From Parvibaculaceae bacterium (GTDB lineage: Bacteria > Pseudomonadota > Alphaproteobacteria > JAPOUT01): a DNA stretch of 64,000 nucleotides. Shown here piece by piece: positions 6,706 through 18,378 of this stretch (the stretch's first letter is position 1; each line of letters opens with the position of its first letter). The stretch covers positions 982,984 through 1,046,983 of the forward strand of contig OY734805.1 in NCBI GenBank assembly GCA_963457525.1. Reading direction: 5' to 3'. The translations under genes were made by a program, and so were the position numbers. The notes under the pieces are model-generated. The model saw only the letters and a list, made by a program, of their open reading frames with translations. It did not search any database and was not told the DNA's origin.

Positions 6706-7926
6706 TTATATGACCTGCCCGGTTTGACGTTGCACGAACTCGGCCATGAGAGGTAACGCAAGGGCGTATTTGCCGTGACGATTGCGTTGGACAAATCCCT
6801 TTTGAATTAACAGATTCAGCATTTGCACGACATGGCTGGCGGAAAAACTTTTTTCCAAATCTTTTCCGGATTGTTCGGCAATTTCTTGAGCCGTAAATTC
6901 GCCTTCCAAAGTTTCTATGTTTGCAATGACCCGTATGAAATCACGTTGCCTGTCCGTCATCCGATCCCATCTTGGTGCAAAAAAATCTTGATCAAGTTTG
7001 CTTATGATTTCCCGGAACGGAATAGCGGGTTCTTGAAAAACGTCACCTCCGAGTATGTCAAATATCTCTTTGCAAATATATTGCAGGAAATAAGGATAGC
7101 CTCCGGAAAATTGAACGATGCCGTCTATGGTTGGCGCGGAAAGTCGAACCGGATTTTTTGTGAGTTCTATCGGCTTTTCGATTGCATCGCGAGCATCGCG
7201 GTCACTCAATTTGTCGAGGGTCAGAACTTCGAACATTCGCTCCGTATAGGTTCTCGCCTCATTAAGCCTTGGGAATAATACGGGCAACCCGGAAAAAATT
7301 ATCATAACCGGTGTGGTGCTGTGGTCGCGTTGCAGGGTTGAAAAGACATCCAGTAGCGTAGAAAGCGGGTACTGGCCGTTTTTTTCTTGATCCGATAGAT
7401 TTTGCGCTTCATCGTAAGCAAAAATAATCCCCTGTACGCTGCCGCCGTCCAGGAGATTCCGGGCGGTTTGAATCACCGCTTTGAGCTTGTCCCCCGTCAG
7501 CCCCGGCGTGCTTTCATAAATTCCCCATAAATCGCCGAAATCCAGGGGTATTTCGGTTTCCGTCTTCTCGGCGTTTTGGGAAGATGAGAACCCTACCGGG
7601 TTTTTTGATTGCCGTTTGCTGATGCGCGGGGTGAGGACCGAGGTCAGATCCGCCACAATGCGGCGAGCCATGTTTTCTTCCGTCATGCTTGCGGATTCGG
7701 AAATTTCGTTGTTTGCCCAGAGCCAGTGCTGCTCGTATGCAATCGGTTTGAACTCCTCCAACAAAACCGTTTTTCCGATACCGCGCAATCCCGTCAATAT
7801 CAGGTTCTTAAGAACCGGTCTTTGCTCGAGGATTTGCTTGAATTTATCCCGCTCTTTTGTTCTTCCGGCCAGGTAAACGGGTTGCTGCCCTGCCCCCGGA
7901 CGAAAGGGGTTTTGGTGTATTGCCAT
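6706..7926 (-). CDS. AAA+ ATPase of the PF01637/AAA_16 family with C-terminal wHTH-like region
   Basis: It contains NPFRPGAGQQPVYLAGRTKE, Walker A LTGLRGIGKT and Walker B IIFAYDEAQNL. The internal start at 7926 was chosen over the ORF start at 8388. Confidence 0.6.
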   Translation of the reverse strand: MAIHQNPFRPGAGQQPVYLAGRTKERDKFKQILEQRPVLKNLILTGLRGIGKTVLLEEFKPIAYEQHWLWANNEISESASMTEENMARRIVADLTSVLTPRISKRQSKNPVGFSSSQNAEKTETEIPLDFGDLWGIYESTPGLTGDKLKAVIQTARNLLDGGSVQGIIFAYDEAQNLSDQEKNGQYPLSTLLDVFSTLQRDHSTTPVMIIFSGLPVLFPRLNEARTYTERMFEVLTLDKLSDRDARDAIEKPIELTKNPVRLSAPTIDGIVQFSGGYPYFLQYICKEIFDILGGDVFQEPAIPFREIISKLDQDFFAPRWDRMTDRQRDFIRVIANIETLEGEFTAQEIAEQSGKDLEKSFSASHVVQMLNLLIQKGFVQRNRHGKYALALPLMAEFVQRQTGQVI

Positions 7927-8475
7927 GTCTGTGCCCGTTATTAAGTAAAATGTTGAGTAGAGCCTAAATTTAGCACAAATACTAAATTTGTCTAATAAAA
8001 AAATCGAACGCGAAAAACCGCGAAATTCCGAGGAAATATACCCTTCTTCAGCCAAAATCCGTTGCGATTCGCATTTCGACTCTGATTCGCAGAGGCATGT
8101 TTGCAGCCTGATTCGGCGGGCGAAGGGGACCGATTCGCCCCCCGGCCGGATGGTGTTTCGCCGTGGCGGGAATCGCGGGAGCGCAACCAAATCAGGGGTC
8201 TTGGCTCGGACGGGGCTTCTTGGTTGGAGTCGCATCTCAATCCGTCCGCGTCCTTTCCTCGCGCCGGAAAAAGGAGAAAGGAACCCGCCTTTTCGGACCG
8301 GCTTCCCCTTGACTTGCGTGGCTGTTGGGTTCACTCTTATGGGGTGAGACCTCGAATGTCCAAGGAACTCGGGGAACTCGCGCATCACACCACCGCCAAC
8401 GCATTCGGGTTACCTTAACACTGTGAGTATTTCCTCCTGCGCTTCTCTTTCGGATTTTGACGCCGCTTCTCGAAA
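7927..8475. other. 550-bp non-coding region upstream of tkt (AT-rich 5' part, GC-rich 3' part; candidate promoter, leader or sRNA)
   Basis: No credible ORF is present. The segment 7930-8000 is AT-rich and the rest is GC-rich with stem-forming runs. Confidence 0.3.
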
Positions 8476-10491
8476 ATGAACGAATCCCCTAACGAAGCAA
8501 GCGCGATTTCACACGCCGATATGGCGAATGCGTTGCGTGTTCTCGCCGTTGACGCGGTCGAGCGTGCCGCGAGCGGGCATCCGGGCATGCCGATGGGGAT
8601 GGCGGATGTGGCGTGTGTTTTGTTCACGCGATTTTTGAAATTTGATTCCCGGGCACCCGACTGGCTTGACCGTGACCGTTTTGTTTTATCGGCAGGGCAC
8701 GGTTCGATGCTGTTGTATGGATTGTTGCATTTGTGCGGCTATGAGGACATGCCGATGGACGAGATTGAGAAGTTTCGCCAGTTGAACTCGAAAGCCGCCG
8801 GACATCCGGAGTGGGGGGTGGCAGGAGGCATCGAGACCACCACCGGACCGCTCGGGCAGGGGCTTGCCAACGCCGTCGGGATGGCTTTGGGCGAGCGCGT
8901 CCTGAACGCCCGATTCGGCGATGACATTGTGAATCATCGCACATACGCGCTGGTTTCGGACGGAGACCTGATGGAAGGAATTTCCCATGAGGCGATTGCC
9001 CTTGCGGGGCATCTAAAGCTCGGCCGCCTGATTGTTTTGTGGGACGACAATCGCATTTCCATTGATGGCGAGACTTCATTGGCGGACAGCTCCAATGTCG
9101 GCATGCGTTTTAAATCCGCAGGCTGGCATGTTGCAGAGGTGGACGGACATGATCCCGAAGCAATCGAAGCCGCAATCGCCGCAGCCATCAAGACGGATGA
9201 ACCAAGCCTTGTGGCGTGCCGGACGATTATCGGTTACGGCGCGCCGAGCAAGCAGAACACCGCGGCTTGTCACGGGGCGCCCCTGGGAGAAGAAGAAGCC
9301 GCCGCCGCACGCAAGCAGCTGGGATGGCAGCACGTGCCGTTTGTCATACCCGAGCGGATTGTCGATGCATGGCGGTTGGCGGGCTTGCGGGGAGGACGCG
9401 ATCGTTCCGCCTGGCAAAAGCGCTTCGATGCTTTGCCCGAAGATGTCAACGAATCGTTTCGACGCATGATGGAGGGCGATTTGCCGTGCGGTTTGCCGGA
9501 AGCGTTTCGCAAGCACAAGAATGCGGTCGCACAGGCGAAGGAGGCAATTGCGACTCGCACGGCGTCACTTAACACGCTCGAAGCCATCGCGGACGTTGTG
9601 CCGGAACTGCTGGGCGGCTCGGCGGATTTGACCGGATCAACGGCGACATGTCCCGCAAAAATGTCGGCGATAACGCCGCAGGATTTTTCCGGAAGTTTTA
9701 TTCATTACGGCGTTCGCGAGCACGGGATGGTCGCGGCGATGAACGGCCTGGCGTTGCACGGGGGATGTATTCCCTACGGCGGAACCTTTCTTGTATTCGC
9801 GGACTATTGCCGGCCGGCTTTGCGCCTGGCGGCTTTGATGGGCGTGCGCGTGATATTGGTCGCAACGCATGATTCCATCGGCGTCGGCGAGGACGGACCA
9901 ACGCACCAGCCGGTCGAGCATCTCGCGAGTTTGCGCGCGATTCCAAACTTGCTCGTATTACGTCCGGCGGACGCTCTTGAGACCGCCGAATGCTGGGAAG
10001 TTGCACTCGCGCAAAAACATCGTCCGTCGGTTTTGGTGTTGTCTCGGCAGAAATTGCCGGCGGTTCGAACATCCATTCCGGACGAGAATCCCTGTTTGCG
10101 GGGGGCTTATGAATTATCGGGTTCGAGCGGGAACGCGCAAGTGAGTTTGCTGGCATCGGGATCGGAAGTGTCCATCGCACTCGAGGCCCAGGAAATTTTG
10201 CTGGGACGGGAGATATCGTCTAGGGTTGTTTCCGTTCCGTGTTTGAATCTTTTTGCCGAACAGGAACAGGCCTACCAGGAGGACGTGCTGGGTCCGGGGA
10301 CGATTCGCATTGCGGTGGAGGCCGGTGTTCGTTACGGCTGGGGCGCGTATGTCGGGGTTGAAGGCGACTTTTTGGGCATGCGTTCGTTTGGCGCGAGCGC
10401 GCCTGCGGGGGATTTATACAAGCACTTCGGCATCACCGCCGAAGAATTGGCAAAGTTGGCGCAAGAGCGTCTTGAGCGACGTTCAACTTAA
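8476..10491 (+). CDS. tkt: Transketolase
   Basis: TPP-binding GHPG, LGQGLANAVGMALGE and the full 671-aa length are present. Confidence 0.95.
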   Translation: MNESPNEASAISHADMANALRVLAVDAVERAASGHPGMPMGMADVACVLFTRFLKFDSRAPDWLDRDRFVLSAGHGSMLLYGLLHLCGYEDMPMDEIEKFRQLNSKAAGHPEWGVAGGIETTTGPLGQGLANAVGMALGERVLNARFGDDIVNHRTYALVSDGDLMEGISHEAIALAGHLKLGRLIVLWDDNRISIDGETSLADSSNVGMRFKSAGWHVAEVDGHDPEAIEAAIAAAIKTDEPSLVACRTIIGYGAPSKQNTAACHGAPLGEEEAAAARKQLGWQHVPFVIPERIVDAWRLAGLRGGRDRSAWQKRFDALPEDVNESFRRMMEGDLPCGLPEAFRKHKNAVAQAKEAIATRTASLNTLEAIADVVPELLGGSADLTGSTATCPAKMSAITPQDFSGSFIHYGVREHGMVAAMNGLALHGGCIPYGGTFLVFADYCRPALRLAALMGVRVILVATHDSIGVGEDGPTHQPVEHLASLRAIPNLLVLRPADALETAECWEVALAQKHRPSVLVLSRQKLPAVRTSIPDENPCLRGAYELSGSSGNAQVSLLASGSEVSIALEAQEILLGREISSRVVSVPCLNLFAEQEQAYQEDVLGPGTIRIAVEAGVRYGWGAYVGVEGDFLGMRSFGASAPAGDLYKHFGITAEELAKLAQERLERRST

Positions 10492-10494
10492 GAG

Positions 10495-12015
10495 ATGGAG
10501 AAAATAATGGTCACAGAAGCACCTTCGATGATGGATATGACTATGGATTTGCTTGGAAAAGCGGGCAAGAATGGAATGACAGTTTTAGACATAGCGACGA
10601 CTCTTTCACGACAAAATCAAAAAATTATTACAAAAAAACAGATTGGAGGAGTGTTTCATAGATTGCGCCGTGATTATCCCGTAGATATTAAAAATTTAGG
10701 AGGGGGAAAATTTGCTCTGTATCCAAAGAAAATGCCCTCGATAATGGATGAAGTTATGCATTTTCTTGATGTTGCAGGCGAACGCGGGCGGACGATTTCG
10801 GATATGGCGGATATACTTTCGCGGCAAAGAAAAAAAATCGTTACAAAGAAGCAAATCAGAAATGCGATTGATAGGTTGCGTGAATCCAGTAAACTCAGCG
10901 GTAATAAAGAACTCATCGAAAGCAACGGAGGGGAAGTGTTTGCTCTACGTAAAAAGAAAACCTCACGTAAAAGTGCGCATAAAAACACCTTGAAGACAGT
11001 GCCTATAAGAGTTGCGATTAACGGTTTTGGCAGAATCGGCCGGATGGTTGTGCGCGCAATAGTCGAGAGCGGGCGCAAGGACATTGAGGTTGTTGCGATT
11101 AACGATCTCGCGCAACCGCAGCAGGCGGCGCATTTGTTGCGTTATGATTCCGCCCATGGAGCGTTCTCCCATCCCGTATCTTTAAGCGGCGATGTTTTGA
11201 GCGTTGGCACGGCGTGCAAGAAGGCGAAGCTTTTCTCCGAGAGGGACCCGTCCAAACTTCCCTGGGGAAAGCTGAAGGTGGATGTGGTTCTCGAATGCAC
11301 CGGACGTTTCACCGCCCGCGACAAGGCCGCCGCGCATCTGGACGCCGGAGCCAAGCGCGTGCTTGTCTCGGCGCCGGCGACCAACGCCGATCTCACCGTC
11401 GTTTACGGGGTTAATCACAAATTGCTGCGCAAGGATCACCGGATTGTTTCGAACGCTTCGTGCACGACCAATTGCCTTGCGCCGGTCGCGCAGTTGATGC
11501 ACCAGCTCTGCGGCATTGAGCACGGACATATGACGACCATTCATGCGTATACCGGCGACCAGGCCCTCGTGGACATGCCGCACTCCGATCCGCGCCGCGC
11601 CCGCGCCGCCGCAGCCTCGATGATTCCGACGACCACCGGGGCCGCCCGCGCGGTCTCTCTCGTGCTGCCCGAACTCAAAGGCCGTCTGGACGGTGCCGCG
11701 GTGCGTGTTCCGGTGTTGAATGTTTCCGTTGTCGACCTCACTTTCCGTTCGGCAAAGGACACGGATGTTGCCTCGGTCAACCGCGCGATGAAGCGCGCCG
11801 CATCCTCGAAGAAGTGGCAGGGCATTCTGGGCGTCGTGGAGGAGCCGCTGGTATCGGTGGACTTCAACCACAATTCGCACTCTTCCATCTTCGATACCAC
11901 CCAAACGCAGATGCTCGGCAAGCGGCTGGTTCGTGTTGTTTCGTGGTACGACAACGAGTGGGGCTTTGCCAACCGGATGGGGGATGTTGCGGTGTGCCTG
12001 GGCGCACTGGGATAG
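10495..12015 (+). CDS. gap: Glyceraldehyde-3-phosphate dehydrogenase with ~165-aa N-terminal tandem winged-helix (H1/H5-like) extension
   Basis: The C-terminal 335 aa carry INGFGRIGR ... SNASCTTNCLAPV ... WYDNEWG, canonical for GAPDH. The N-terminal part is AT-rich, stop-free and contains two repeats. An alternative start is ATG 10507, which has a better SD. Confidence 0.85.
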   Translation: MEKIMVTEAPSMMDMTMDLLGKAGKNGMTVLDIATTLSRQNQKIITKKQIGGVFHRLRRDYPVDIKNLGGGKFALYPKKMPSIMDEVMHFLDVAGERGRTISDMADILSRQRKKIVTKKQIRNAIDRLRESSKLSGNKELIESNGGEVFALRKKKTSRKSAHKNTLKTVPIRVAINGFGRIGRMVVRAIVESGRKDIEVVAINDLAQPQQAAHLLRYDSAHGAFSHPVSLSGDVLSVGTACKKAKLFSERDPSKLPWGKLKVDVVLECTGRFTARDKAAAHLDAGAKRVLVSAPATNADLTVVYGVNHKLLRKDHRIVSNASCTTNCLAPVAQLMHQLCGIEHGHMTTIHAYTGDQALVDMPHSDPRRARAAAASMIPTTTGAARAVSLVLPELKGRLDGAAVRVPVLNVSVVDLTFRSAKDTDVASVNRAMKRAASSKKWQGILGVVEEPLVSVDFNHNSHSSIFDTTQTQMLGKRLVRVVSWYDNEWGFANRMGDVAVCLGALG

Positions 12016-12019
12016 GACG

Positions 12020-13255
12020 GTGCGTTCGTGGGGATTTTCGACGTTTGACGACCTCTTGAAAAGGGGCGCGTCGCAGGGGGATCGATGCTTGCTGCGTGTC
12101 GACTTAAACGTTCCGATGGACGGCTCTCGCGTTCTGGACGCCACCCGCTTCGAACGCGTTGCCCCGACCATCAAGGAACTTCGTGCGGCGGGTTTTCGAA
12201 TTGGACTGCTTTCGCATTTCGGCCGTCCGAAGGGGGAGGCGCGCGCGGACATGAGTCTCGAGCCGGTGGCAAAAGCGCTGGCCGGTCATCTTGGGCATCC
12301 GGTGGCATTCCTCGGCGATTGTGCCGGCGAGACGGGCGCGCAGGCGTTTTCAAAACTGTCGGCGGGTGATGTCGGCGTGTTCGAGAACACCCGTTTCCAC
12401 AAGGGTGAAAGCGACAACGATTCCGCTTTCGCGCAGGCGCTTGCGGGCAATGGCGATGTCTATGTCAATGATGCGTTTTCCGCGAGTCATCGCGCCCATG
12501 CTTCAATAGTCGGATTGGCCGGGCTGCTCCCGTGTTATATGGGGCGCGCGATGATGGGGGAGTTGGAAAGCCTCGAGCGTTACCTCGGCGGCAGCCTGTC
12601 GCGTCCGGCGATTGCATTGGTGGGCGGGGCAAAATTGACCGGCAAACTTTCGTTGCTGAAGGCGCTGGTTGAGCGTTTTGACGTATTGATACTGGGCGGG
12701 GGGATGGCGAATCTGTTTCTGGCGGCACGGGGAATCGGTGTCGGGTCGTCTTTGTACGAGCCCGAGCGCATCGGGGATGCGAAGGCTTTGGAGTTGTCGG
12801 CGCAAGAGCGTGGATGTAAATTATTGCTGCCCCGCGATGTGATAGTCGCGCGTGAATGCGTTGCGCACACGCCGACGCGTTCGGTGGATTTGTCGGAGGA
12901 TGCAGTTGGCGATGATGAAAAGATTTTGGATGTCGGCGAGGAGTCTTTGCGCGTGATGGCCGGGCATTTTGAGACGGCTTCAACGTTTGTGTGGAACGGG
13001 CCTTTGGGCGTGTTCGAGGTTCCGCCGTTTGACCAGGGAGGCGAGGTTGCCGCGCGACATGTTGCAATGCTGACGAGGCTGGGCTCAATGGTTTCGGTTG
13101 CGGGCGGAGGCGAGACGGCGATGTTGCTGGAACAGGCCGGTGCAATGGAAGATTTTTCTTACGTGAGCGCAGGGGGCGGGGCGTTTTTGTGCTGGCTTGA
13201 GGGTAAAGGTTTGGCGGGGGTGGACGCGGCACGGGCCGCTTGTGCAATCAACTAA
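12020..13255 (+). CDS. pgk: Phosphoglycerate kinase
   Basis: The product contains FDDLL...RVDLNVPMDG...FENTRFHKGE. A GTG start at 12020 with AGGA upstream was chosen, because the ORF start at 11933 overlaps gap. Confidence 0.85.
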   Translation: MRSWGFSTFDDLLKRGASQGDRCLLRVDLNVPMDGSRVLDATRFERVAPTIKELRAAGFRIGLLSHFGRPKGEARADMSLEPVAKALAGHLGHPVAFLGDCAGETGAQAFSKLSAGDVGVFENTRFHKGESDNDSAFAQALAGNGDVYVNDAFSASHRAHASIVGLAGLLPCYMGRAMMGELESLERYLGGSLSRPAIALVGGAKLTGKLSLLKALVERFDVLILGGGMANLFLAARGIGVGSSLYEPERIGDAKALELSAQERGCKLLLPRDVIVARECVAHTPTRSVDLSEDAVGDDEKILDVGEESLRVMAGHFETASTFVWNGPLGVFEVPPFDQGGEVAARHVAMLTRLGSMVSVAGGGETAMLLEQAGAMEDFSYVSAGGGAFLCWLEGKGLAGVDAARAACAIN

Positions 13256-13280: not shown

Positions 13281-14300
13281 ATGTCTGAGATGGATGAAAT
13301 AGCGCTGCGCATGGTTGCGCGAGGCAAGGGGATATTGGCCGCGGATGAAAGCAGCGGCACGATTGCCAAGCGTTTTGCCTCGATAAAAGTTGACTCGACG
13401 GAAGAAAAGCGCCGGGAGTATCGGGAACTGCTGTTCCGGTCGAACGATGCGTTGCGGGAGTGCATATCGGGAGTGATATTGTTCGATGAGACGCTGCGCC
13501 AAAACGCCGGGGACGGAACGCCGCTGGTTGACGTCATCCGCGGCACGGATGTTCTCGCCGGCATCAAGGTTGATCAAGGGCTCGTGCCCATCAAGGACGG
13601 CGACGTCGAAACCGTCACCAACGGTTTGGAGGGTCTGCCGGACCGTCTCAAAGAATATCGAGAGCTGGGCGCGGTGTTTACAAAGTGGCGCGCCGTATTC
13701 CACATCGGCGAGTCAACGCCTTCGAAGGACGCAATAACCCGAAACGCCGACCTTCTTGCGAAATACGCGAAATGCTGCCAGCAGGCCGGACTGGTTCCCA
13801 TCGTTGAACCGGAAGTGCTGATGGAAGGCGGCCACGACATCGAGAGTTGCAGCGATGCGAGCACTTCGGTTTTGCGCGAAGTTTTCGGAGCGCTCGGGCG
13901 CGAGGGCGTTCGTCTGGAGGCGACCGTGCTGAAGCCGAACATGGTGACGCCGGGGGATGCCTGCGCGCGCCGTGCCACGAGCGAGGAGATAGCCGAGAAG
14001 ACTCTCGCCTGTTTTCATAACACGGTTCCCGCGGCCGTTCCGGGCATAGCGTTTTTGTCGGGCGGGCAGAAGGATGTCGAAGCGACGGAAAACCTGAACG
14101 CCATTAACGCCCTTGCAAACGCTTCGGGCAAGGCGCCCTGGGCTTTGACCTTTTCGTTCGGACGCGCCCTTCAGGCCGGAGCGCTGCAGGCGTGGGGAGG
14201 CGAGGAAGCGAACATTCCGGCGGCGCAGGCGGAGTTTCACAAGCGCGCGCAGATGAATTCGAAGGCTTCCGTCGGGGAGTGGTCGGCCTCGATAGAATGA
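13281..14300 (+). CDS. fba: Fructose-bisphosphate aldolase, class I
   Basis: GKGILAADESSGTIAKRF is the class-I FBA Schiff-base family motif. The RBS is aaggagtaaag. Confidence 0.9.
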   Translation: MSEMDEIALRMVARGKGILAADESSGTIAKRFASIKVDSTEEKRREYRELLFRSNDALRECISGVILFDETLRQNAGDGTPLVDVIRGTDVLAGIKVDQGLVPIKDGDVETVTNGLEGLPDRLKEYRELGAVFTKWRAVFHIGESTPSKDAITRNADLLAKYAKCCQQAGLVPIVEPEVLMEGGHDIESCSDASTSVLREVFGALGREGVRLEATVLKPNMVTPGDACARRATSEEIAEKTLACFHNTVPAAVPGIAFLSGGQKDVEATENLNAINALANASGKAPWALTFSFGRALQAGALQAWGGEEANIPAAQAEFHKRAQMNSKASVGEWSASIE

Positions 14301-14962
14301 GCGTACGCGCCCGCCGACGGTTCACAAAAAATGACGGCGGGTTGTACCTTCTCACGCCGCCGCGTGTTTGCTTGCAAACGTTTCCCGACGCCTTGTCCCG
14401 GGCGTTGGAGGCGGGAGGCGTTTCGTGCCTGCAGATTCGCCTGAAATTCTCCCAAGATGAATCCCGGGATTCCGGGCGCGTTTGGCGTGAATGCGTCGGG
14501 GTTCTTGCGCCCCTGGCCCGGCGCTACGGCGTTTCGGTTTTGCTGAACGACGATGCGCGTCTTGCCGGCGCGTTGGGAGCGGACGGCGTTCATATCGGGC
14601 AGCAGGACGACGGCATGGATGCAGCGCGTGCATCGGTGGGCGAGGGCATTGTCGGCGTGACCTGCCATGACTCCCCGGAGCTGGCGCACGCGGCACAGGC
14701 TTCGGGGGCGGATTATGTTGCGTTTGGATCTTTTTTTGCGTCCCGCAACAAACCGGACGCGGTGCGCGCGCCTCTCGGGATTTTGTCGCACTGGCGCGAG
14801 AAGGGAAACATTCCCTGCGTTGCGATAGGGGGAATCACGGCGGGGAATGCGGCGGATTTGCTGCGTGCGGGCGCAGACTACCTAGCGGTGTGCGAGGGCG
14901 TATGGGGACACGCGGACGGGCCCGCGGCGGCGGTTGAAGAATTCGCGGTGCTGTTCGGTTAG
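14297..14962 (+). CDS. thiE: Thiamine-phosphate synthase ThiE
   Basis: The TMP-TENI fold (GADGVHIGQQD...VAIGGIT) is present. Its ATG overlaps the fba stop (ATGA). Confidence 0.85.
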   Translation: MSVRARRRFTKNDGGLYLLTPPRVCLQTFPDALSRALEAGGVSCLQIRLKFSQDESRDSGRVWRECVGVLAPLARRYGVSVLLNDDARLAGALGADGVHIGQQDDGMDAARASVGEGIVGVTCHDSPELAHAAQASGADYVAFGSFFASRNKPDAVRAPLGILSHWREKGNIPCVAIGGITAGNAADLLRAGADYLAVCEGVWGHADGPAAAVEEFAVLFG

Positions 14963-17940
14963 AAGTCGTATCGCAAACCGAAATTGACCCGGTAGGATTC
15001 GATCTCGTCGCCTTGCGAGGTTTCGAAGTCGCCGAAGAGAATCGCGCCGTTCCCTTTCGATAAAAAATCAACGGGATAGTTGAATCCCATACCGAGATCG
15101 ACGGCGACGTCTTCGATTTCATTGACGAAGGTTACGCCTGAAACATCGACGCTCGTCCTTCCGTCCAGGGGCACGCGCAGGTTGGCATCGGCGCGGAAGA
15201 ACGCGCCTGCCGCCGATGCGCCGATGCGCCCGACGAGCGTGTTTCCGTCTTTGAGCGAAACGCTCTGCCCCGCGGGCGCTTCGAACCCATTAAAGCCGAC
15301 GCGGCTCCATATGAGTTGCACCTGCGGCGTCAGGGTGACGGTTTCGAATTCGAAGTTGTATCCGATTTCTTGCGCCGCGCTGAATGCTAGAGCGCTGTTT
15401 CCGGATGCGAGGGTTCTGTTTTCGGCGCGGAGGTTGTTGTCGAAGGTTGCGAATCGGGTTTGCATGTCGGCGTAGAAGTCCTTGTACTTCCATAGCGCGT
15501 TGAGAGAGGCCGTAACAGTGTCGGTTTCGATTTTTCCCTTGCCGGTGGTCGCGGCAAGGTTCGTTTTCGCCGAGCCTATCGTGATGTCCGCATCGAGATT
15601 GAGTGTTTGCACAACGGGCATGTCCACGCCGAATCGCGCGCGTGAGTGCTCTATATCGAAGTCGGAGCCGAGCGTGGATCCGTTCGGCTCGAGACGGGTG
15701 TGCCTGGTTTCGACTTTCCCCCAGAAGGTTCTGCGGTTTGCATCCGCCCATTTACGCGCACTGAAGCGCCGGAGCATGGAGGAGGGCTGTGCAAGCTGTG
15801 TGAGGATAGCGGGATAGGCTTCGTGATTCTGAAGGCTTGGAGCGAATCCGCTTTCGTTCAGCGACCATGATTTTGCCGTCGCGTCATAGACGAGTTCGTA
15901 GGCGAAGGCTCCGTGGGAGAAGTTATCGACGCTGAAAGCATCGGCGCGGGAGGCTCCCCGGACGGAGATGATATTGTTGATATCGGTTCCGGGATCAATG
16001 CGGCCGTTTGCCCGGATTTCGAGGCTGCCGGTTTCATTGCCGGTGATGTCTCCGGTGATGATGAAGTGTCCGGGATTATCGAGTTGGAGGTCGATTGCCA
16101 GATCTCCGCCGGCCTGGAAGTTGCCGTCCAGTGTCGTGTCGCCGGCGACTTCGAGCACGCCGCCGTCGGGAACGGCGAGGCTTGCATCGCTTGCAAGCCG
16201 CAGGGTTGCACCGCGGAGTCGCAGCCGCCCGGAGGTGAAAGAGACGGCGTCGAATTCTTCACCGGCCTGCATTGCCCCGGTGAGTTCCCAGAGGCCGTTT
16301 CCGGTTTTCTCGAGGGTGCTGAATCCGTTGAGGGTCGAGAGATCGAATCCGCCTGCGTGCGCCGGGAGCGATGGAGTTCCGTTCCCGCTTTGTCCGTGCA
16401 GCATCGGGTGGTATTCGTTTGCCTGTGCGTTGACTGCATCGGCGAGTTCGAGGATTGCATCGCCGGATGCCGTGATAGCGTCCTCGATGCTGCTGCCGGG
16501 GCGCACAATGAGTCGTTGTGTTGTCCCGCCGCTCATGGAAATGCCGTCTCCGGAGTTGCTTTTGATTCGTCCGCCGACCTCAACGAGAATGTTTCCGGCT
16601 CCCCGGTGGTTGATGTCGATGCCTGCGTTTTCGGCATGGATGTATTCGTTTGCCGTGACGAAGATGTCTCCGGTGCTACTGTCTTTGTACGCATGGATTC
16701 CCCTGTCTCCTGCGTGAATTTGTTCGTTTGTCGTGATGGAGATGTTTCCGCCGTTGATTTGGCGCGTGTGTATGGCGCTTTCAATGTTTGTTTGGATGCG
16801 TCCGTTTGCCGTAATGAAGATGGATTCATTGCTCTCGTGCTGCACGTATATTCCGTCTTTTTCCGCGGTGACGTCGTTTGCGATGATATTGACGGTGCTC
16901 GAGCCTTGCTGTCTAACGTTGATTCCGTCTTCTTGTGCCGCGGTTATGCGTCCGTAGGCTTCGATGTTGACGGCTTCTGCGGTGGGGTCGTTTATGACTT
17001 TAATGGCATGGTCGCTGTTGGCGGCAAGAGTCGCGTTTTTTTGGATGGTAATGTTGACGTCTCTTCCATAACCGTGTGCGTAGATGACGTTTTTCTCGGC
17101 GGCGAGGTTTCCACCTTCCACCGTGACGTTGACGTCCTCCGAGTTACTGAGGGCATAAGCGTAGATTGCGCCGGCTCTTGCAGTGATGTTGTTATTTGTT
17201 GTGACATTGTTGCTCCCTGAAGCGGCGTGTCGTGCCATGATGGCGGGAGCGATCGTGCTTGCACTGTTCATGTCCCCGCTGACGTAAATGTGCGAATTCG
17301 TTCCGTATTGGTTGTAGGTGTAGACGAGGTTTCCGGTGCGGTCCCCCTCGCTTGACGTGTCTCCGGCCACGGTTAGCGTTAAAGTTCCCGTTCCTGCGTG
17401 TTCCAGCCGGACGGCGTGGCCGGCGGTGGTAATGATTCCATCGAAAAAGATTGCGGAGCGGCTTGTTCCGTTGATTGCGGCGGTCAAGTTTGCGGATTCC
17501 CGCCGGGTTTTAATCAGGATTCCATCGCGTCTGCCCGAGGCGTTTGTGTTGGTGGTGACGGTGACATCCCCGCTCCCCTGGTGGTCGAGGTGGATTCCGC
17601 GCAAGTTTCCCGTGATGGAGCCGCCGCCGTCCAGGTGGATGTTTGCGCCCGTGGAGTTCGTTGAGGTTGTAATAACCAGGCCGGAGCCTTGCTGTGTATG
17701 ATGGGAGAATTCCTCTTCGTCCGTGATGGAGAAAATTCCATCATGCGTGCCGGAGATCATTTGCGTCGTATCGGTTTGCATGTTCGCCGGGCCCGTGCAT
17801 GTGTAGGAACCGGCCGTTCCGGTGCATGTTCCCGCGAATGCGTCCGGGAGTGCCGCGCCGAGAAGGATGGGTGCGAAAGTTATGATTCCACGGGCTGTTT
17901 TGCGAAGGCGTCCGCCGCGCATGTTTTTGTTGGGGGTCAT
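14959..17940 (-). CDS. Large autotransporter (type Va) with β-helical passenger and C-terminal β-barrel
   Basis: The signal peptide is MRGGRLRKTARGIITFAPILLGAALPDAFA. Passenger repeats follow, and the C-terminus ...NFGLRYDF ends in Phe. The stop overlaps the thiE stop by 2 bp in convergent orientation. Confidence 0.75.
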   Translation of the reverse strand: MTPNKNMRGGRLRKTARGIITFAPILLGAALPDAFAGTCTGTAGSYTCTGPANMQTDTTQMISGTHDGIFSITDEEEFSHHTQQGSGLVITTSTNSTGANIHLDGGGSITGNLRGIHLDHQGSGDVTVTTNTNASGRRDGILIKTRRESANLTAAINGTSRSAIFFDGIITTAGHAVRLEHAGTGTLTLTVAGDTSSEGDRTGNLVYTYNQYGTNSHIYVSGDMNSASTIAPAIMARHAASGSNNVTTNNNITARAGAIYAYALSNSEDVNVTVEGGNLAAEKNVIYAHGYGRDVNITIQKNATLAANSDHAIKVINDPTAEAVNIEAYGRITAAQEDGINVRQQGSSTVNIIANDVTAEKDGIYVQHESNESIFITANGRIQTNIESAIHTRQINGGNISITTNEQIHAGDRGIHAYKDSSTGDIFVTANEYIHAENAGIDINHRGAGNILVEVGGRIKSNSGDGISMSGGTTQRLIVRPGSSIEDAITASGDAILELADAVNAQANEYHPMLHGQSGNGTPSLPAHAGGFDLSTLNGFSTLEKTGNGLWELTGAMQAGEEFDAVSFTSGRLRLRGATLRLASDASLAVPDGGVLEVAGDTTLDGNFQAGGDLAIDLQLDNPGHFIITGDITGNETGSLEIRANGRIDPGTDINNIISVRGASRADAFSVDNFSHGAFAYELVYDATAKSWSLNESGFAPSLQNHEAYPAILTQLAQPSSMLRRFSARKWADANRRTFWGKVETRHTRLEPNGSTLGSDFDIEHSRARFGVDMPVVQTLNLDADITIGSAKTNLAATTGKGKIETDTVTASLNALWKYKDFYADMQTRFATFDNNLRAENRTLASGNSALAFSAAQEIGYNFEFETVTLTPQVQLIWSRVGFNGFEAPAGQSVSLKDGNTLVGRIGASAAGAFFRADANLRVPLDGRTSVDVSGVTFVNEIEDVAVDLGMGFNYPVDFLSKGNGAILFGDFETSQGDEIESYRVNFGLRYDF

Positions 17941-18378
17941 GTTGTCTCCGTTTGAAATTGGTTCGATGGATGAACGAACGGACGACAATTGAGCGCTTAA
18001 TTTTGGATGTTATACGCACCCGGAAACTTAACGGGATGAAACTCCCCCTAGCAGGGCCGGGGAAAATAACCGCCGATTTTGCTTGTTTGTTTTTCTTAAA
18101 AGATTGGCAGGCGTCGCGAAACGCAACCATGCCGATCCGTAAAAAGCAAACAAGTAAAAAGACCGAGCAACCAACTCGAAAATTTTGACATGTTACTGAT
18201 TTGATTCGCGCGGGACGCGCACTTGGACGAATTCCGCTACGACTCGCCCTGCCCGATTCGCATTTTCCGAAGAAAGCGAAAATGCGTCCGCAAAGAGGCT
18301 TGGCCCGCAAATCCCGGCGGGGAAAGCCCGCTCCCCATATTCCCTAATTACAGGGAAAAGGGGACAACGTCAAGCCTT

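Follow-up and report, generated by a model that had tools for sequence, protein, structure and literature searches.

The window analysed here, 64,000 nucleotides of contig OY734805.1 (assembly GCA_963457525.1, positions 982,984 to 1,046,983 of the forward strand), comes from an uncultured sponge/coral-associated alphaproteobacterium whose glyceraldehyde-3-phosphate dehydrogenase (GAPDH, gene gap) bears two small basic winged-helix (WH) domains at its N-terminus. Comparison of the gap locus across assemblies shows, by the conservation of its frame and the pattern of its substitutions, that the window encodes a genuine WH-WH-GAPDH chimera, translated as one protein. The best explanation as a whole, to which we give a probability of roughly 0.55, joins this chimera to the history proposed below and to nucleic-acid binding by the WH domains, which would act jointly with GAPDH.

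Reading frame and translation of the fused gene

The gap open reading frame (ORF) is open over 506 aa (10495..12015, + strand), and its C-terminal ~335 aa are a canonical GAPDH, as the original prediction had described them. This part scored 422.1 bits against TIGR01534 (cutoff 367.2) and contains the motifs NGFGRIGR, SCTTNC and WYDNE. It is a type I enzyme body covering residues ~171-506 (11005..12015, +), with matches to PF00044 (Gp_dh_N, 2.7e-35) and PF02800 (Gp_dh_C, 1.9e-60), and with the NAD-binding motif G-F-G-R-I-G-R and the catalytic-Cys motif S-C-T-T-N-C in frame at 11020 and 11458. A scan of the window found no second gap gene. The first ~500 nt of the ORF are indeed AT-rich and free of stop codons (37-43% GC, against ~58-62% in the flanks), and third codon positions in the extension have a GC content (GC3) of 0.37, compared with 0.73 for the gap body and 0.65 for the transketolase gene tkt. 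The argument that an open frame in such DNA is itself a sign of translation also stands: the chance of 165 open codons at this base composition is ~5e-6, none of 20,000 shuffled versions of the extension stayed open, and the other two frames hold 9 and 14 stops.

The frame is open from 10495, as first proposed; as the start codon, this position gives way to the conserved ATG at 10507. The latter is preceded six nt upstream by GGAG (10497-10500), while the ATG at 10495 falls in the Shine-Dalgarno (SD) region itself, and its equivalent in a related genome (L001) is directly followed by TGA. Starting at 10507, the fused ORF (10507..12015, +) encodes 502 aa plus stop, which is the length of the public protein call for the source genome (P0001) and of the products of L001 and of a further assembly (P0149), suggesting a single conserved product. 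The SD-ATG motif, GGAGAAAATAATGG (10497..10510, +), was located by regular expression and alignments. Its counterpart in L094, a conspecific genome without the extension, is GGAGGAAATATGG, immediately 5' of a 341-aa gap, and the motif GGAGNNAAT(A)ATGG lies immediately 5' of gap in every unfused locus and of the WH-WH-gap ORF in the fused loci. All unfused relatives have a homologue of the window's SD-ATG directly in front of gap; the fusion thus uses the native ribosome-binding site and start of gap.

L001 is a metagenome-assembled genome (MAG) labelled Hyphomicrobiales bacterium (GCA_026708445.1), and belongs to a different species, with 84% nucleotide identity across the operon. It carries the same in-frame 502-aa ORF, and its extension is 83% identical to that of the window over 498 nt with zero indels. 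The L001-type fusion was found in two more assemblies (P0149, 502 aa, and P0143), so that the continuous WH-WH-GAPDH frame is present in at least four independent assemblies; the possibility that the fusion was created by a sequencing or assembly error, raised at the outset, is met by this unbroken frame. Between the window and L001, the ratio of non-synonymous to synonymous divergence (omega) was 0.28 for the extension (Nei-Gojobori; 38 synonymous and 47 non-synonymous differences; Fisher p = 2-3e-7) and 0.07 for the GAPDH body. Synonymous divergence (dS) was nearly equal in the two parts (0.46 in the extension, 0.43 in gap), which together with the omega of 0.28 indicates that the extension has co-diverged with gap as coding sequence. 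Third codon positions took 42 of the 85 substitutions in the extension. Within it, the first WH domain had an omega of 0.12 (p = 2e-7). Purifying selection on the chimera, strongest on the first WH domain, is thus shown by the substitution counts.

The suggestion that canonical GAPDH could additionally arise from an internal TTG or GTG (10990, 10999) is unlikely to hold: L001 has TCG and ACA at these positions, and no SD stands ahead of them. At the position of the ancestral gap start the window reads GTG and L001 reads ACA, with no SD upstream of either, and the internal ATG chosen by PGAP in L001 corresponds to CTA in the window. The sole SD-ATG conserved between the alleles is that at 10497-10509. 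As internal starts are neither conserved nor preceded by an SD, translation of the whole 502-aa ORF is the only conserved route to GAPDH. These observations bear directly on the idea that the chimera is an artefact, with an untranslated extension and GAPDH made only from an internal start, or with a hidden frameshift between the two parts. In its favour, NCBI annotates the GAPDH of L001 as 346 aa from an internal ATG, and the window does contain an in-frame TTG and GTG; against it stand the same frame in the independent assemblies, the lack of SD and the disagreement of the candidate internal starts between the window and L001, the single conserved SD-ATG, and the codon-position pattern of the substitutions. 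We therefore consider an artefact, or the exclusive use of an internal start, very unlikely. The NCBI protein in question, MCY4034517.1 (L001:5001-6041), drops 156 upstream in-frame codons, and this choice of start makes the fusion invisible in the public protein records of that MAG.

Fold of the extension and the family of small winged-helix proteins

The extension consists of two ~70-aa repeats, as first noticed from the sequence; they are 43% identical to each other (BLASTP E = 2e-17). The winged-helix character assigned to each repeat is also borne out by prediction, AlphaFold2 (AF2) placing in each a helix, a short strand, two further helices and a beta-hairpin, in agreement with the superfamily topology H1-(b1)-H2-H3-b2-b3. 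WH1 (10525..10737, +; H-b-H-H-bb) was modelled as a single repeat with the family alignment (pLDDT 90, pTM 0.76), and WH2 (10738..10959, +) shows the same topology in a tandem model made without alignment (pLDDT 78 for both copies). A Lys/Arg-rich linker, KKKTSRKSAHKNTLKTVP, encoded by CATAAAAACAC (10960..11004, +), was delimited by comparison of the junctions, and the peptide running from WH2 through the linker into GAPDH reads FALR/KKK...VPIRVAINGFGR. The extension is strongly basic (isoelectric point 10.3, net charge +17), and helix 3 ranks among the better conserved elements of the repeats. Foldseek searches with the tandem model returned tandem-WH proteins at the top, namely ScpB (E = 9.5e-6), followed by RPC34, subunits of ESCRT-II and YceH, and the closest structural neighbours of the WH module are DNA-binding winged helix-turn-helix (wHTH) domains.

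Meanwhile, the likeness to linker histones H1 and H5 proposed in the original prediction found no support. The Pfam profile of the linker histone domain (PF00538) did not match the whole extension or either repeat at E <= 10, while the globular domain of H5 (GH5), used as a positive control and validated by that match, gave 1.9e-27. Profile-profile comparison of the family with an H1/H5 alignment (hhalign) returned a probability of 0.2% over 1 aligned column, and no linker histone occurred among the Foldseek matches of either the tandem model or the single domain. The 'SRQ' of the repeats sits at the C-terminal end of helix 2 in the AF2 model. In GH5, the same residues open helix 2, and the motif match is therefore out of register. 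A long Lys/Ala/Pro-rich tail of the H1 type is not present, only a basic linker of ~15-20 residues before GAPDH. Common to the repeats and H1/H5 are a generic winged-helix fold of three helices and, after the wing, basic residues in a short Lys-rich segment, and a distant relative (P0130, below) has a Lys/Ala/Pro-rich tract that recalls H1 tails. With the Pfam profile, the profile-profile comparison, the ranking of structural neighbours and the motif register all failing, the reading of the extension as a bacterial homologue of the H1/H5 globular domain is hardly credible, and is refuted as far as these tools can tell.

Taken by itself, the extension retrieved nothing when 5.8 billion proteins were searched through a word index, scans of genome and metagenome contigs with the extension alignment found no relative, tblastn gave no match in plasmid and phage collections, and Foldseek found nothing below E = 7e-3 among viral structures. 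Detection of the family required profiles built from repeat units. A profile from five repeat units recovered six free-standing proteins of 75-89 aa (P0121-P0126; E = 3.7e-29 to 5.9e-18), and an exhaustive HMMER search with the family profile added P0127, P0128, P0129 and P0131 (69-94 aa; E = 2.4e-16 to 3.3e-07), together with multi-repeat relatives such as P0130. Pairwise, the window extension matched P0121 with E = 1e-8 and P0127 with E = 7e-10. The close family (P0121-P0129, P0131) has no Pfam match above gathering cutoff, and generic helix-turn-helix models were reached only by distant multi-repeat relatives, e.g. P0130 and P0132-P0136 (HTH_11, HTH_24, MarR-type; 30.2 bits for P0130 against HTH_11). 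The repeats of the window and the close family were unmatched by HTH_11 (PF08279), and the ScpB model PF04079 gave no sequence match at E <= 10. Among the eight sequences scanned for weaker matches (the two window repeats and P0121-P0126), RPA_C (PF08784) came up in five (best E = 0.0055) and DUF3489 (PF11994) in three (best E = 0.008). These winged helices resemble the repeats in having helix 1 followed by an 'LL.K.G..G' turn, but every match was below the gathering cutoff and neither family suggests a gap-specific function. Profile searches thus show the WH module to be part of a small, low-GC, fast-evolving and lineage-restricted family without a Pfam model.

Nearly all of these free-standing genes lie next to gap. 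The order tkt-WH-gap was found in L005, L006, L008, L009 and L010, and in two short contigs (L003, L007) the WH gene is directly upstream of gap on the same strand. In L005, L006 and L008 it follows tkt after a conserved spacer of 665-740 nt. The free WH gene ends 34-37 nt before gap, or in L008 overlaps the gap start as TAATG; in L009 and L010 there is an overlap with the 3' end of tkt, and 12 nt separate the WH gene from gap. In the distant orthologues L002 (GAPDH 84% identical) and L004 (75%), tkt is directly followed by gap. Among the best 120 GAPDH homologues, only the window protein carries such an extension. All of these sequences come from Tara Pacific samples or from sponge metagenomes and MAGs, and a scan of a GTDB-based collection with the GAPDH body found relatives at <=65% identity, indicating that the clade has no species representative there.

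The WH protein is 60-73% identical among L003-L008, while the adjacent GAPDH is 96-99% identical. In five of six pairs, dS of the WH gene was 2-5 times that of gap; its omega was 0.3-0.7, reaching 0.58-0.72 in some pairs (L003, L005, L006, L008). The WH gene is a local hotspot of divergence, which suggests allele exchange or diversifying selection. The tails of P0124 and P0126 read MKHKNTRKK, and the linker DNA CATAAAAACAC of the window matches the WH-gap spacer of the unfused relatives, suggesting that the linker is a relic of that spacer.

Two features of the relatives deserve separate mention. P0130 (L092:5001-5744, 247 aa) has, besides a ~100-aa Lys/Ala/Pro-rich tract similar to an H1 tail, a pair of WH repeats ending in the RGPW-plus-basic motif of the family, and it aligns collinearly with the tandem module of the window (31% over 123 residues, E = 1e-7). 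Its gene is located away from gap, between a cytidylyltransferase-family gene (CTP_transf_like) and a MoCF_biosynth gene, and comes from the same Tara sample as L004. The spacer between tkt and the free WH gene (L005:5263-6000, L006:5261-6000, L008:5336-6000, L003:1-240) is better conserved than the WH gene itself. Its ORFs are all short (50-79 aa), and it may serve as a promoter or leader or encode either a non-coding RNA or a small protein. No Rfam family was detected in the window or in the conserved spacer of L005.

Presence and absence of the module at the tkt-gap junction

We identified conspecific assemblies that lack the insert, namely L093, L094 (GCA_026708405.1) and L095 ('ROBB21' sponge metagenome). 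Their identity to the window is 99.5% across 6 kb on the left side of the insert and 7 kb on its right side, yet they are without the extension. The blastn alignments break exactly at window positions 10510 and 11007, and in all three genomes tkt is followed by 14 nt containing GGAGG and then by the ATG of a 341-aa gap. The presence/absence segment (10511..11006, +) measures 496 nt in the window against 13 nt in the conspecifics, a net difference of 483 nt or 161 codons. Moreover, an unfused GAPDH (P0138) differs from the body of the window protein at 1 of 332 residues, and the body of another (P0139) is identical to that of L001, which indicates that both species are polymorphic for the fusion. 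The alignments, taken with the gene orders above, show that the slot is polymorphic, being empty, occupied by one separate WH gene, or filled with two WH domains fused to gap, and that it varies at 99.5% identity.

Maps of single-nucleotide polymorphisms (SNPs) revealed a tract of raised divergence around the indel (9960..11820, no strand). Between the window and the insert-less conspecifics, divergence was 2.4% in 9960-10506 and 1.7-1.8% in 11007-11820, against 0.2-0.3% elsewhere (13 kb), making the tract ~8-fold more divergent than the background. When the flanking SNPs were polarised with outgroups, derived states were mixed on both haplotypes and pointed to no donor direction. The pattern is characteristic of either a recombination tract that was imported or an old polymorphism that has been maintained.

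Based on these findings, we postulate that gap first gained a foreign WH gene on its upstream side, which would then have been duplicated in tandem. A deletion of ~23 nt, removing the stop of the WH gene together with the SD and ATG of gap, may then have welded WH-WH to gap, and the alleles would since have been exchanged by homologous recombination. The SD-ATG motif and the match between linker and spacer fit such a history of WH duplication followed by joining through deletion.

The fused ORF lies among tkt, pgk and fba. The upstream gene of the operon, tkt (8476..10491, +), encodes a transketolase of 671 aa, identified from its ORF and from L001 and L094 orthologues with Transketolase Pfam domains, and its TAA stop sits 15 nt ahead of the fused ORF start. 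Downstream follow pgk (12020..13255, +; GTG start inferred from the ORF frame, orthologues with the PGK Pfam domain) and a class I fructose-bisphosphate aldolase gene (13281..14300, +; ORF, orthologues with PF00274).

Other variable features were observed in the vicinity. A divergent AAA_16-type ATPase of ~405 aa (6706-7923, - strand, start approximate; GC 45-52%), with a winged-helix-like C-terminal tail (…GKYALALP…), stands upstream of tkt in the window, L001, L093, L094 and L095, whereas L002, L005 and L006 lack it and have their ZapA-side genes nearer to tkt. We read it tentatively as another accessory insertion beside the operon. The C-terminal WH of this protein was considered as a paralogue of the repeats and rejected, as tblastn gave no match. 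In the GC-rich region between this gene and tkt, a second small cluster of divergence separates the window from L094, with four substitutions at 8215-8230 and a 1-nt indel at 8138 on a background of 99.7% identity. In L004, a 246-aa ORF with an NPPF motif, suggestive of a DNA methyltransferase-like protein, lies between gap and pgk (L004:5127-5867); it was discarded as a WH relative on account of this motif, and is another sign that the intergenic slots of the operon accept foreign genes. Further downstream, after thiE, a 1009-aa ORF (14959-17988, -) has an L001 orthologue with an Autotransporter domain (PF03797). This autotransporter-like gene is 993 aa long in the 99.5%-identical assemblies, its called length varying slightly by strain.

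Possible roles of the winged-helix module

Judging from its charge (isoelectric point 10.3, +17), its DNA-binding wHTH neighbours, the make-up of P0130 and the HTH_11, HTH_24 and MarR-type matches of relatives, the WH module probably binds nucleic acid, most likely DNA. As one genome has the module joined to GAPDH, while relatives encode it within 37 nt upstream of gap or overlapping it, it probably also acts with GAPDH, by the logic of a Rosetta-stone fusion. Type I GAPDH is a tetramer. A tetramer of the chimera would present eight WH domains and so anchor the enzyme to DNA; in another scheme, binding by the WH domains could depend on the oligomeric or ligand state of GAPDH. The most economical role would be control of its own operon, tkt-gap-pgk-fba, by a regulator or tether that acts in dependence on GAPDH. 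Such a role would parallel BirA in architecture and CggR in gene position; we put it forward tentatively and at less than even odds.

Several observations weigh against nucleic-acid binding and joint action with GAPDH. What we take the WH domains to do is drawn only from their fold, charge and gene neighbourhood, and searches of Pfam, NCBIfam, PHROGs, PADLOC and PDB sequences gave no significant match for the extension or its close family. ScpB and ESCRT-II, which are among the best structural matches, are WH proteins of protein-protein contacts. WH2 (omega 0.51, p = 0.06) and the linker (omega 0.40, not significant) show weak constraint between the window and L001, and because the extension stands 5' of an essential enzyme and shares its only start, upkeep of the frame is by itself no proof of a WH function. 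The existence of conspecific strains without the module implies that any such function is dispensable; the module is accessory. P0128 (L011) is not linked to gap, its gene being located between an aminotransferase gene and dps. Finally, no candidate operator was found in the extension or in the region upstream of tkt. The extension has a single inverted repeat (10726-10735 / 10758-10767), rejected because it is not conserved in L001, and the region upstream of tkt has none. A scan for promoters and terminators found no terminator between tkt and gap, and one sigma-70-like site inside WH2 (10868-10895) that is not above chance.

An alternative that takes much of this into account is that the module is a trapped passenger, an accessory or selfish low-GC WH cassette in a recombination-prone slot, translated but inert, and kept since its disruption would abolish gap expression. 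Presence and absence among strains with 99.5% identical flanks, a foreign composition that has not been ameliorated (GC3 0.37 vs 0.73), free copies that outpace both flanks (omega 0.3-0.7, dS 2-5 times that of gap), the weak constraint on WH2 and the linker, and the fact that the start of gap would itself enforce an open frame are all what a passenger would leave behind. We nonetheless judge this reading unlikely, given the omega of 0.12 in WH1 (p = 2e-7), with omega below 1 in all ten computable pairwise comparisons, the retention of WH position and orientation across lineages at ~30-37% WH identity, the fused form kept intact in two species since their split, and a cassette that displays no transposase, integrase or repeat hallmarks and has no phage or plasmid homologues. 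Protein-protein contacts are another role of WH folds, as in ScpB, ESCRT-II and the WH domains of cullins. The tandem module could be an adaptor of this sort, linking GAPDH itself, or the free WH protein in relatives, to some other protein or complex with no binding of nucleic acid. The best whole-module Foldseek matches are tandem-WH scaffolds, and the enzyme fusion and the adjacent free copies, overlapping gap in L008, fit a physical partnership. The strongly basic character of the module and the conservation of helix 3 speak against an adaptor, as do the failure of PF04079 to match and the lack of any partner gene that co-varies with the cassette in the loci examined, and we regard it as rather improbable. 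Going further than nucleic-acid binding in joint action with GAPDH, the small WH proteins might be dedicated GAPDH partners, an unrecognised DNA/RNA-binding family coupling the state of a glycolytic enzyme to gene expression. The fusion would then be their 'Rosetta stone', and the empty, separate and fused alleles an old polymorphism in sponge/coral symbionts, possibly under diversifying or balancing selection. We offer this as speculation that is more likely wrong than right.

In kind, both wHTH-enzyme fusions and N-terminal GAPDH fusions are already known. BirA is a bifunctional biotin-protein ligase and repressor of the bio operon, and both BirA and NiaR carry an N-terminal WH of the HTH_11 type on an enzyme or ligand-binding body. 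They resemble the chimera in that a small N-terminal wHTH is joined to a metabolic enzyme or sensor domain. There is, however, no sequence kinship (hhalign probability of 0.3% against the N-domain of E. coli BirA, and no HTH_11 match for the window repeats), and the fusion of the window differs in having two WH domains, GAPDH as the enzyme and a module that varies between strains, with DNA binding only putative. ScpB, an accessory protein of SMC-kleisin, shares the tandem-WH layout of ~165 aa and is the best whole-module Foldseek match, but the extension lacks a PF04079 match and an scpA or smc context and is fused to GAPDH, and the superposition of the two domains has a TM-score of 0.31, so that the domain arrangement is not reproduced. 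In Bacillus subtilis, the central glycolytic genes repressor CggR is encoded immediately upstream of gapA; a member of the SorC/DeoR family, it has ~340 aa and includes a sugar-phosphate effector domain. As a wHTH protein directly upstream of gap and co-transcribed with it, CggR is a positional analogue of the free WH genes in L003-L010, whereas the WH proteins are 69-94 aa long, consist of the WH domain only and are unrelated in sequence, and their regulatory role is hypothetical. The fusion of triosephosphate isomerase with GAPDH (TPI-GAPDH) in stramenopiles indicates that GAPDH tolerates a folded N-terminal domain and stays an operational enzyme (PMC3527533). Unlike that eukaryotic case, in which the partner is a glycolytic enzyme, the partner here is a putative nucleic-acid-binding module in a bacterium. 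A full-text search of a literature collection found no report of a bacterial GAPDH-wHTH fusion or of a small WH family linked to gap.

GAPDH is the best-known 'moonlighting' enzyme, and BirA, PutA and NadR are textbook fusions of enzyme and regulator that link metabolism directly to transcription. The fusion described here had been hidden by public annotation, PGAP having trimmed the GAPDH of L001 to 346 aa, and its evolutionary picture is unusually clear. The case illustrates how a low-GC gene of foreign origin can become joined to the start of an essential gene. It also provides a natural experiment, in which the plain enzyme and the WH-WH fusion occur within one species and the same domain occurs as a separate gene in sister lineages. 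This makes it possible to ask, in a testable form, whether a small WH protein may, together with GAPDH and on DNA or RNA, control central carbon metabolism.

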